From: an uncultured Anaerolinea sp.
Lineage (GTDB): Bacteria > Chloroflexota > Anaerolineae > JAAEKA01
DNA length: 64,000 nt
Assembly (NCBI GenBank): GCA_964626845.1
Contig: CAZVGR010000007.1
Span: forward strand, 4,820 to 68,819
Reading direction: 5' to 3'
Within the stretch, counting starts at the first letter, position 1. Each line of letters opens with the position of its first letter. Shown here piece by piece: positions 4,138 through 6,740 of this stretch. The notes below the pieces were generated by a model that was not told where the DNA came from, did not search any database, and was given only the letters and a program-made list of their open reading frames with translations. The translations under genes were made by a program, and so were the position numbers.

Positions 4138-6740
4138 ACTACGGCTATTTCGACGATGCGGCCCGCGAGTACGTCATCACCCGGCCCGACACGCCGCTGC
4201 CCTGGATCAACTACCTGGGCAGCGAGGCCTACTTCGGCCTGATCTCCAATACCGCCGGCGGCTACAGCTTCTACCGCGACGCGCGGCTGCGCCGCATCAC
4301 CCGCTACCGCTACAACAACGTCCCCTTCGACGCAGGCGGCCGTTACCTCTACCTGCGCGACGACGCCAGCGGCCAGTTCTGGTCGCCTTCCTGGATGCCG
4401 ACCCGCACGCCCCTGGACGCCTACACTTGCCGCCACGGCATGGGCTACACCATCATCAGCTCGCAGGCGCACGGCATCGAGGCCAGCACGCTGTACTTTG
4501 TGCCGCTGGGCGCCAACCTGGAGATTTGGCGCACGCGCGTGACCAACCGGCGCAGCGAGCCAGCCGGGCTGTCCCTGTTCTCGGCCGTGGAGTTCAACCT
4601 GTGGGACGCCTGGGACGACCAGACCAACTTCCAGCGCAACTTCAACACCGGCGAGGTCGAGGTCGACGGCGGCGTCATCTACCACAAGACCGAGTACCGC
4701 GAGCGACGGGATCATTTCGCGTACTTCGCGTGTTCGGCCGCTCTTAGGACTGACAGTCCTGCTCCTGCGACGGACGATGTCGACACGTCGAGAGAGAGTC
4801 AACCGGTCGACCAGGACTGTCAGTCCTCTCCAACGTTCGTCGGCTTCGACACCCAGCGCGAGGCCTTCCTCGGCGCCTACCGCGGCTGGGACAATCCCAT
4901 CGCCGTCGAGCGCGGCCAGGCCGGCAACTCGGTCGCCCACGGCTGGTCGCCCATCGGCTCGCACCACGTGCGACTCAGCTTGCAACCGGGCGAGACCGCT
5001 GAGGTCATCTTCGTGCTGGGCTACCACGAGAACCCGGCGGACGACAAGTTCGATCCGCCCGGCCTGCGGCAGACCATCAACAAGCGCGCCGTGCTGCCCC
5101 TCATCCAGCGCCATCTCCAGCCGGACACCGTGGAGGCCGAGCTGGCCGCGCTGCGCAGCCGCTGGGATGACCTGTTGAGCATCTTCACCGTGCAGACGCC
5201 CGACGAGCACGTCAACCGCATGGTCAACATCTGGAACGCCTACCAGGTGATGGTCACCTTCAACCTGTCGCGCTCGGCGTCGTTCTTCGAGTCCGGCGTG
5301 GGCCGCGGTATGGGCTTCCGCGACTCCAACCAGGACCTGCTGGGCTTCGTGCAGATGGCGCCGGCGCGCGCCAGGGAGCGCCTGCTGGACCTGACCGCGA
5401 CGCAGCTTGAGAACGGCGGCGCGTACCATCAGTACCAGCCGCTGACCAAGCGCGGCAACGACGCGGTGGGCAGCGGCTTCAACGACGACCCGCTCTGGCT
5501 GGTGCTGGCCGCGGCCGCCTACCTCAAGGAGACCGGCGACTGGTCGATCCTGAGCGAGCCGGTGGTCTACGAGAACCGGCCCGGCAGCGAGCAGCCGCTG
5601 GCCGACCACCTGCAGCGCAGCATGCAGTACATCCTGGACCGCCTGGGACCCCACGGCCTGCCGCTGATCGGCCGGGCCGACTGGAACGACTGCCTCAATC
5701 TCAACTGCTTCTCCGAGACGCCCGGCGAGCCCTTCCAAACCACCGAGAACCGCGGCGAAGGTAAGATCGCCGAGTCAGTCTTCATCGCTGGCCAGTTCGT
5801 CCTCGCGGCCAAAGAGATGGCGGGCATTGCCGGGCAAGTTGCAGGTGGCAAGTTGCAGGTGGCAGGTCAGGCTATGGATGACCTGCGTGCAACCTGCAAC
5901 CTGCAACCTGCAACCTTTTACTTGCAACTTGCAGGGCAGATGGAAGCCGCGGTGCGGGCGCACGGCTGGGACGGCGCGTGGTTCCTGCGGGCCTACGACG
6001 CGCTGGGCGGCAAGGTCGGTTCGAGGGAGTGCGACGAAGGGCAGATCTTCATCGAGCCGCAGGGCATGTGCGTCATGGCCGGCATCGGCCTGGACCTCCC
6101 CGGCGGCCTGGCCGGGCAGGCGTTGGCCTCGGTGCAGCAGCATCTGGCCAGCGAGCACGGCGTCGTCCTGCTCCAGCCCGCTTACACCCGCTATCACCTG
6201 GAGCTGGGCGAGATCACCTCCTACCCGCCCGGCTACAAGGAGAACGCCAGCATCTTCTGCCACACCAACCCCTGGATCATGATTGCCGAGGCCATGCTGG
6301 GCCACGGGGAGCAGGCGCTGGACTATTACCACCGCATCTGCCCATCGGCCCGGGAGGCGATCAGCGACGTGCACCGCAGCGAGCCCTACGTCTACGCTCA
6401 GACCATCGCCGGCAAGGACGCGCCTAGCTTCGGCGAGGCCAAGAACTCGTGGCTGACCGGCACGGCGGCCTGGAACTACGTGGCCATCACCCAGTGGATC
6501 CTGGGCATCCGGCCCAGCCACGACGGCCTGCGCATTGCGCCGGTGATCCCGGCCAACTGGCCGGGCTTCAGCGCCACCCGCCAGTTCCGCGGCGTCACCT
6601 ATCACATCGACGTGCGCCGGACCGGGCCGGGCAACGCCGTGGCGCTGATGGTGGATGGACGACCGGTAGCGGGTGATGTCGTGCCATTGCCGCGCGCGGG
6701 GCAAACGGTTGTGCGCGTGCAGGCAATGGTAGGCGGGTGA
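4134..6740 (+). CDS. GH94 disaccharide phosphorylase (cellobiose / N,N'-diacetylchitobiose phosphorylase type)
   Basis: Starts '[29 protein letters not shown]'. Carries motifs '[11 protein letters not shown]', '[11 protein letters not shown]', 'FCHTNPW' and '[10 protein letters not shown]'. Its ATGA overlaps the stop of the upstream kinase. The longer track ORF from 3381 is a frame artefact. Confidence 0.9.
   Translation: [868 protein letters not shown]
4746..4827. repeat. Palindrome-flanked small element lying in frame inside the GH94 gene
   Basis: AGGACTGACAGTCCT (4746-4760) and AGGACTGTCAGTCCT (4813-4827) flank 52 nt. The same termini are found at 10436-10518. Confidence 0.8.
5835..5935. 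repeat. Intragenic inverted heptamer array (GCAGGTG / CAACCTG units) inside the GH94 gene
   Basis: Left arm is CAAGTTGCAGGTGGCAAGTTGCAGGTGGCAGGTCA (5835-5869). Right arm is TGACCTGCGTGCAACCTGCAACCTGCAACCTGCAACC (5879-5915), followed by TTTTACTTGCAACTTGCAGG. Confidence 0.75.

Follow-up and report, generated by a model that had tools for sequence, protein, structure and literature searches.

We analysed a 64,000-nucleotide stretch of contig CAZVGR010000007.1 from an uncultured Anaerolinea sp. of the Chloroflexota; "the window" below means this whole stretch. It contains a gene of glycoside hydrolase family 94 (GH94) in which two inverted copies of a 15-bp palindrome lie within the reading frame. 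We interpret the palindrome as a probable repetitive extragenic palindrome (REP) and the 82-bp segment that its two copies delimit as a REP doublet, belonging to a family that in related genomes flanks genes resembling REP-associated tyrosine transposases (RAYTs). The gene and the parts of the element are as follows.

4134 to 6740, plus strand: host gene, GH94, cellobiose-phosphorylase-like; 868 aa, from the ATG at 4134 to a stop that ends at 6740
4740 to 4829, plus strand: segment gained over the empty site of an ortholog, net 90 nt (30 codons), consisting of gctctt, the 82-nt REP doublet and ct
4746 to 4760: left REP unit, AGGACTGACAGTCCT, central base A, read as R-T-D-S-P
4761 to 4812: spacer of 52 nt, loosely conserved in the 81-85-nt "A..T" sub-family (34 family members aligned), with a central CGCG(T) motif and no conserved internal helix
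4813 to 4827: right REP unit, AGGACTGTCAGTCCT, central base T, read as (Q)D-C-Q-S-S

The repeat unit, AGGACTGNCAGTCCT, is a perfect palindrome apart from its central base. The left and right units are exact reverse complements of each other, the central base included, and so form a true inverted repeat; the inverted arms of the doublet at 4746-4827 extend to 19 nt and are 95% complementary. When the same segment was folded as a single strand, both ends paired (z = -3.7), with partial pairing in the interior. An earlier reading of the window made without database searches (the sequence-only reading) had described two 15-bp palindromes bracketing 52 nt inside an open frame. Both were located exactly where it had placed them, and in translation the GH94 frame runs uninterrupted through the pair.

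The host gene has the architecture of its class, with an N-terminal beta-sandwich and a catalytic (alpha/alpha)6 domain. Apart from the insert, its product is similar over its whole length to solved cellobiose phosphorylases (3QDE, 8HO7 and 2CQS; ~1040 bits), and it is nearer to these enzymes than to chitobiose phosphorylases (1040 against 463 bits). Pfam PF06165 and PF17167 match P0001, a protein identical to the window GH94 protein.

The sequence-only reading had also proposed that roughly 30 extra codons constitute an insertion that kept the frame open, and comparison with homologs bears this out. A four-residue link such as EPLA joins FACS to GFDTQ in 100 of 119 aligned homologs. This set includes the paralog encoded in the window at 12494-14902, which differs here in the way the sequence-only reading had stated: it has no palindromes and carries an ordinary link, APLA. 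A close ortholog (P0007, locus L115) has a link of five residues at the insert position, and the DNA comparison places an empty site there (...tgc tct gcg / ccc acg ctc gcc ggc...). The HMMER match to the solved C. thermocellum enzyme falls into two parts, residues 1-203 and 236-859, and opposite the insert 3QDE has a single residue; residues 204-235 of the window protein have no counterpart in the cellobiose phosphorylases of the PDB. The palindrome-free relatives thus do not keep a homologous segment of ~30 aa. As judged from these alignments, the segment 4740-4829 is an insertion relative to the orthologs.

An orthologous long insert, likewise in frame, is present in two independent assemblies, an ENA metagenome (L117/P0003) and Anaerolineae bacterium clx_CAG2 (L060). 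In the core, dN/dS between the window gene and six orthologs is 0.14-0.20; in the insert it is ~0.7. Taken with the in-frame insert in both assemblies, the core values indicate that the core is under purifying selection and that the gene is not decaying. An AlphaFold2 model of the window protein (mean pLDDT 76, pTM 0.82) has residues 209-231 as coil with pLDDT <50 between strands 194-200 and 234-241, a placement in which the insert is predicted to lengthen a beta-hairpin turn of the N-terminal sandwich domain. The 30-residue loop is probably disordered and presumably lies at the protein surface, and we infer that it is translated and tolerated.

With up to one mismatch allowed, the window has six occurrences of the 15-mer; the expectation from 100 dinucleotide-preserving shuffles is 0.00, which excludes chance. 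At up to three mismatches the window contains nothing credible beyond three paired sites. Two of these had been missed by the sequence-only reading:

10436 to 10518: second doublet, 83 nt, A..T type with a 53-nt spacer, its left REP at the end of the GH20 hexosaminidase gene 8842-10443, its remainder in the spacer before the next gene
20057 to 20118: third site, short form (20071-20104), intergenic, a hairpin with 28-nt arms; units at 20071-20085 (1 mismatch) and 20090-20104, 4 nt apart

The left REP of the second doublet closes the GH20 gene (10436-10443), whose final residues it encodes and whose TGA stop it provides; the gene carries GH20 Pfam domains, and its product ends in ...YRGWTED* in the window against ...YREWID* in a relative (L116). 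This doublet folds into local hairpins, not end to end. The third site folds at -33.5 kcal/mol (z = -11.9), and no long open reading frame (ORF) spans it. In L116 the same intergenic spot after the GH20 gene (17490-17590) holds a different hairpin, gatttcggaagtcgccg...cggcgacttccgaaatc.

To follow the family beyond the window, we scanned one genome per species for two 15-mers lying 30-60 nt apart. Among the matches listed, doublets occur at at least 114 loci in 21 genomes, 19 of them from Chloroflexota (Anaerolineae, Caldilineales, Promineifilaceae and Leptofilum) and two from Gammaproteobacteria, with 4-17 loci per relative. The sequence-only reading had left it to be seen whether the 15-mer recurs elsewhere; the two further window sites and these loci make it a dispersed short palindromic unit with many copies. 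The units form inverted pairs with a short spacer, and their central bases are complementary at all three window sites and in 143 of 157 neighbouring unit pairs. Unit-to-unit spacing falls into classes of ~19, 46-50 and 66-69 nt. Three forms recur. Genomes of 60-70% GC have an "A..T" form of 81-85 nt, to which the window copies belong, and those of 36-57% GC a "G..C" form of 60-66 nt; the third form is a short hairpin of 15-4-15 design, its loop being for instance TCCG or CGGA. The core is identical across genomes ranging from 36 to 70% GC.

Most copies lie outside genes. A cluster of units was counted as spanned if an ORF extended at least 60 codons to both sides of it, and 109 of 129 clusters (~85%) were not spanned by this measure. 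Several of the 20 spanned clusters proved to be shadow frames or 5' leaders and were set aside, leaving four accepted in-frame cases: the window GH94 gene, its ortholog in L060, a gene in L108 whose copy sits between the ADH_N and ADH_zinc_N domains, and an ORF of Anaerolineae bacterium clx_CAG2 (L070, spanning 950-1114) with five in-frame AGGACTG-type REP units. The last is a long, high-GC3, membrane-protein-like ORF with no Pfam match; further upstream it contains four copies of another repeat, encoding AKKPGFSSPH.... In L009 the element lies upstream of a gene that we take, from its N-terminal sequence as recognised by eye, to resemble guaB. The family is therefore mainly extragenic, and its in-frame copies are a surviving minority. 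Such a minority fits the stop content of the units, since on direct reading G/C-centred units are stop-free whichever of the six frames is used, and the A/T-centred unit contains just one stop, a TGA in one frame, which is the TGA that ends the GH20 gene at the second window site.

We clustered the ORFs of all fetched loci (~800 kb) and found one recurrent transposase-type neighbour, a protein of ~200 aa with HFHLLV (HUH) and YIHRNP (Tyr) motifs. In L006, L058 and L079 its gene directly adjoins doublets, and in L085 they stand on both sides of it. Arrays of units that deviate by 1-2 mismatches flank two homologs fetched separately, in L121 and L122; the L122 array comprises 11 GTAG-tagged tandem doublets. 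The family is thus adjacent to RAYT-like genes in six related genomes or metagenome contigs. The best NCBIfam model for the flanked protein is REP_Tyr_transpos (E = 1.6e-12, 47.5 bits); a profile built from 29 homologs has a single PDB match, 4ER8, the E. coli TnpA(REP)-REP complex (E = 6e-6), and homologs are named "REP element-mobilizing transposase RayT" by JGI. The RAYT-like family is large (P0121-P0334; 1794 proteins at E<=1e-10 in one search, 2863 at E<=1e-20 in another), and the great majority of its members lie on contigs of 1-3 kb, which is what one would see where arrays of flanking repeats interrupt the assembly. Two RAYT-like genes themselves carry a short REP doublet in frame at the same loop, in L122 (2718-2750) and in the L079 ORF (5473-6081), where it reads PQDCQFSEGWQS; the RAYT of L006 lacks it.

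These features make up the arrangement of a REP and REPIN (REP doublet forming a hairpin) population with its RAYT, also called a "REPtron". On this basis we consider it likely, with a probability of about 0.8, that the 15-mer is a REP and the 82-bp segment a REPIN-like REP doublet. Several observations weigh against this interpretation. The insertion includes 8 junction nucleotides beyond the 82-nt doublet. In the RNAalifold consensus of 33 long-form members, base pairing is confined to the invariant 15-bp ends (covariation term 0), and no single long hairpin spans the doublet. Of 80 outer ends of long-form copies only 5 have GT before them, so that the dispersed copies lack a GTAG (or CGTC) tag; those in the window are preceded by ctt, ccg and tc, and GTAG is found in the array beside the L122 RAYT-like gene and on a small number of copies in L058 and L080. 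The score of 47.5 bits is below the curated cut-off of REP_Tyr_transpos (80), and the Pfam Y1_Tnp score is also below its threshold (19.8 against 23 bits). By tblastn there is no RAYT gene in the 64-kb window. The flanked genes are in relatives, which share 83-90% nucleotide identity with the window in the syntenic region, and the mechanistic link is therefore one by homology. Finally, relatives carry unrelated hairpins at the GH94 turn, and it is possible that replacement or gene conversion, instead of simple transposition, placed the doublet there.

Under the REP interpretation, the doublet would be a non-autonomous element of two inverted AGGACTGNCAGTCCT copies around a spacer of ~52 nt. 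A RAYT-type HUH/Y1 enzyme is the likely agent that moves or copies such doublets. By analogy with E. coli TnpA(REP), it would bind REP hairpins in single-stranded DNA and cut and rejoin the strand beside them. We infer that RAYT-mediated mobilisation of this kind took place in the organism of the window. One copy would have landed in the DNA for a turn of 4-5 residues between two beta-strands of the GH94 N-terminal beta-sandwich. The gene would have stayed open because the REP is stop-free in the frame used, the spacer is stop-free as well and the 82 nt, with the 8 at the junction, add up to a net 90 nt. The enzyme would now carry a surface loop of 30 residues, probably disordered.

It may instead be that the repeats are structural or regulatory hairpins selected by the host, such as terminators, mRNA stabilisers or protein-binding sites, that were spread and kept uniform by recombination or gene conversion. 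The intragenic copy would then be a by-product, or a regulator at the translational or mRNA level. The second and third window sites are at gene ends, a common place for REPs to act on mRNA. In addition, the REP arms are identical at 30 of 30 positions between the window and P0003, compared with ~67% identity in the spacer and 88.6% in the coding core, which suggests constraint on the arms at the DNA level (or, under this alternative, the RNA level) or their homogenisation. Unrelated 15-4-15 hairpins with a TCCG or CGGA loop also occur at the same positions in relatives. This explanation leaves unaccounted for both the tight association with RAYT-type genes in six genomes and the identity of the core from 36 to 70% GC, and we regard it as improbable. 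REPs are known both as mobile and as host-functional elements, so a host role would not exclude the REP interpretation.

There is also little chance that the repeats are remnants of the IS200/IS605 group of insertion sequences (IS), of the palindrome-associated transposable element (PATE) type, and that the flanking Y1 enzyme is an ordinary multi-copy IS200 TnpA. The ends of IS200/IS605 elements have subterminal hairpins and insert without duplications, and the weak Pfam match is to Y1_Tnp, "Transposase IS200 like". Yet the best model and the only PDB relative of the protein are those of RAYTs (REP_Tyr_transpos and 4ER8), and its genes are flanked by symmetric arrays of REP doublets, not by distinct left and right ends. 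The elements are themselves symmetric, each being its own inverted repeat, with complementary centres. No TnpB-like partner was seen among the ORF clusters, of which only those recurring in most loci were inspected, without a Pfam scan for TnpB.

A classical MITE (miniature inverted-repeat transposable element), derived by deletion from an IS with a DDE transposase and 15-19-bp terminal inverted repeats, and inserted with a target-site duplication, is very improbable. Ends that are inverted repeats of 15-19 nt, a length of 82 bp and the lack of coding capacity would suit such an element. Against it, no target-site duplication is seen when filled and empty sites are compared, the flanks being gctctt and ct, with no flank consensus among 34 family members. 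Each end is itself a perfect palindrome, and units occur also as 15-4-15 hairpins and in tandem arrays, as REPs do in bacterial interspersed mosaic elements (BIMEs). The only recurrent transposase-type gene flanked by the repeats in the fetched loci is of the Y1/HUH type, not DDE; no IS that could be the parent, with matching termini and a DDE transposase, was found in these loci, to which the search was confined. Mis-joins can occur at repeats in a metagenome-type assembly such as this one, but an insert lying outside a working protein, in a decaying pseudogene or at an assembly artefact, is extremely improbable given an 868-codon frame intact through two separate hairpin inserts, the core dN/dS of 0.14-0.20 against six orthologs and the orthologous in-frame insert in L117 and L060.

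Other candidates were rejected. A search of 2.9 million viral contigs for the long and the short doublet pattern gave no match, and a phage vector was dropped. An operator or transcription-factor site, an intron and an intein were dropped on the number of loci, the adjacency to RAYT-like genes, the 82-nt size and the absence of any Rfam family at gathering score over the whole window.

The GH94 turn is a recurrent location of inserts. Nineteen homologs have inserts at this position, and among them are no fewer than four palindromic families unrelated to one another (RTDSP..DCQSS type, ELPSFPKDGNS, repeats of SPLEGGPSTT and a further one). Within the clade of 83-89% identity the site is empty in P0007, holds the long form in the window, P0003 and L060, and holds the short form in two registers (P0002 and P0005 against P0004). 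P0006 carries an unrelated 34-nt hairpin, AAAGTTGCCATCTTT-tccg-AAAGATGGCAACTTT, which starts at the same nucleotide as the REP hairpin of P0004. On the sequences, these states are compatible either with repeated insertion into a permissive or targeted site or with cassette-like replacement.

Doublets with the identical 15-bp core are also found in metagenome-assembled genomes (MAGs) of two giant sulfur bacteria of 36-45% GC, named here as labelled: Ca. Albibeggiatoa BB20 (29 loci among the matches listed; L004, L017, L021 and 26 others) and Thiomargarita sp. (L090). The Albibeggiatoa copies have AT-rich spacers and conserved outer flanks (TTAAGATGATAC.. / ..CACACTCAAGAT). The 29 Albibeggiatoa loci contain no RAYT, and no sulfur-bacterium name appears in the best 120 matches of two RAYT-family searches. 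A paper on MITEs in Thiomargarita (PMC4853749) describes unrelated elements. A broader hypothesis, which we find tentative and on balance doubtful, is that the AGGACTGNCAGTCCT REP and its RAYT would be a horizontally mobile REPIN-RAYT system common to Chloroflexota (48-70% GC) and giant sulfur bacteria (Ca. Albibeggiatoa and Thiomargarita; 36-45% GC). In this system 15-4-15 cassettes of different REP families would replace one another at fixed codons, and transposase or gene conversion would keep the arms uniform. If true, cassette replacement would turn protein turns such as the GH94 loop into hypervariable, REP-encoded segments. Real sharing with the sulfur bacteria would bear on the claim of exclusively vertical inheritance for REPIN-RAYT systems.

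The window GH94 gene contains a second in-frame hairpin at 5828-5938. It is unrelated to the doublet, ~100 nt long and built of heptamer repeats (GGTGGCA.. / ..GCAACCT, four times); its fold is -39.5 kcal/mol with DNA parameters and -73 with RNA parameters. Most orthologs of 83-89% identity have it, and it is missing from the 814-aa forms. Some GH94 orthologs (L117/P0003, L115/P0007 and L060), not the window gene, have a third in-frame hairpin insert after KFDPP, gctcgggccggtc-tcct-gaccgagcccgc, which encodes LDSSGRSPDRAR, and other GH94 homologs have inserts elsewhere, such as one of 55 aa in P0047. Further hairpin repeats lie at gene boundaries of the window, at 12303-12423, 6750-6910, 3043-3113, 2074-2147 and 46475-46537, the last with a GTAG tag (CGTAGTGGCGACTTCAGTCGC) like that of a classical REP. 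The genome appears to be rich in several families of palindromic repeats.

The gene is part of a sugar-utilisation cluster that is conserved between the window (766-14902) and L115-L120 and comprises GH4, YdjC, a BadF-type kinase, GH94, GH3, GH20, a glyoxalase, GH130 and a second GH94. These neighbours suggest a role in chitobiose or N-acetylglucosamine metabolism.

RAYT-linked REP doublets have been studied almost only in enteric bacteria and pseudomonads, and the present family would extend them to Chloroflexota of the Anaerolineae and Caldilineales type. The GH94 gene offers a natural example of a REP doublet tolerated in an enzyme, with filled, empty, short-form and other-family states at one codon position among relatives of 83-89% identity. 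The series could be used to follow how elements enter and leave coding DNA, how constant arms coexist with a drifting spacer and how much extra loop the GH94 fold tolerates. For annotation, such inserts account for the scatter of GH94 protein lengths from 814 to 894 aa, and the case is a warning that low-complexity inserts of this sort are repeat-derived.

REP and REPIN systems with their RAYTs have been described in E. coli and Pseudomonas fluorescens (PMC3116915, PMC3337134, PMC3479197). The family resembles them in its dispersed short palindrome, its inverted pairs with a short spacer, the single small HUH/Y1 gene that it flanks, its mostly extragenic location, often at gene ends, and the lack of target duplication. 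It differs in that its unit is a perfect 15-bp palindrome with no conserved GTAG on dispersed copies, its spacer is poorly conserved with no family-wide long hairpin, and its transposase scores below curated RAYT cut-offs. Its hosts are Chloroflexota (plus two sulfur-bacteria MAGs) instead of enteric or pseudomonad Gammaproteobacteria, and the GH94 copy is intragenic and in frame. The BIMEs of E. coli likewise combine REPs of alternating orientation, joined by linkers that come in a few set lengths (in the present family ~19, 46-50 and 66-69 nt from unit to unit, besides tandem arrays); they differ from the present family in sequence and host, and we have no evidence here for binding of IHF, gyrase or Pol I.

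The sequence-only reading had likened the insert to Rickettsia palindromic elements (RPEs). RPEs are, to our knowledge, ~100-150 bp long, confined to Rickettsia and its relatives and without an identified transposase. Ogata et al. 2000, in the part cited in PMC3733652, describe repeats of palindromic structure that entered genes in frame, left them functional and gave the protein an additional surface segment. The likeness in behaviour holds as far as that account goes, as the window GH94 gene also took in its element in frame and remained intact, but this is shared behaviour and not membership. The window family, with its 82-bp length, two 15-bp REPs, link to RAYT-like tyrosine transposase genes in related genomes and Chloroflexota host, is set apart from RPEs on the strength of their descriptions, with no RPE sequence compared.

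The closest precedent for the in-frame copy is the survey of Di Nocera et al. 2013 (PMC3733652), in which GTAG- or CGTC-tagged REPs, single or as dimers, lie wholly inside ORFs and add short peptides to otherwise conserved proteins in Opitutus, Thauera, Xanthomonas, Stenotrophomonas and others. The sequence-only reading knew of no such behaviour in this kind of genome. That survey documents it in several non-rickettsial phyla, and the part of the statement that stands concerns the host: in the literature searched we found none of the four 15-mers and nothing on the family or on Anaerolineae-type genomes. The survey has no Anaerolineae or Caldilineae and no AGGACTG-type unit, Chloroflexus aggregans being its only Chloroflexi entry. 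It also reports upstream genes whose stop codon is provided by a REP terminus, the situation of the second window site. REPs in genes of the same category were usually at different sites in that survey, unlike the GH94 genes, where one loop was hit repeatedly. In-frame REPs are thus already described in other phyla, and the GH94 case adds a family and a host.

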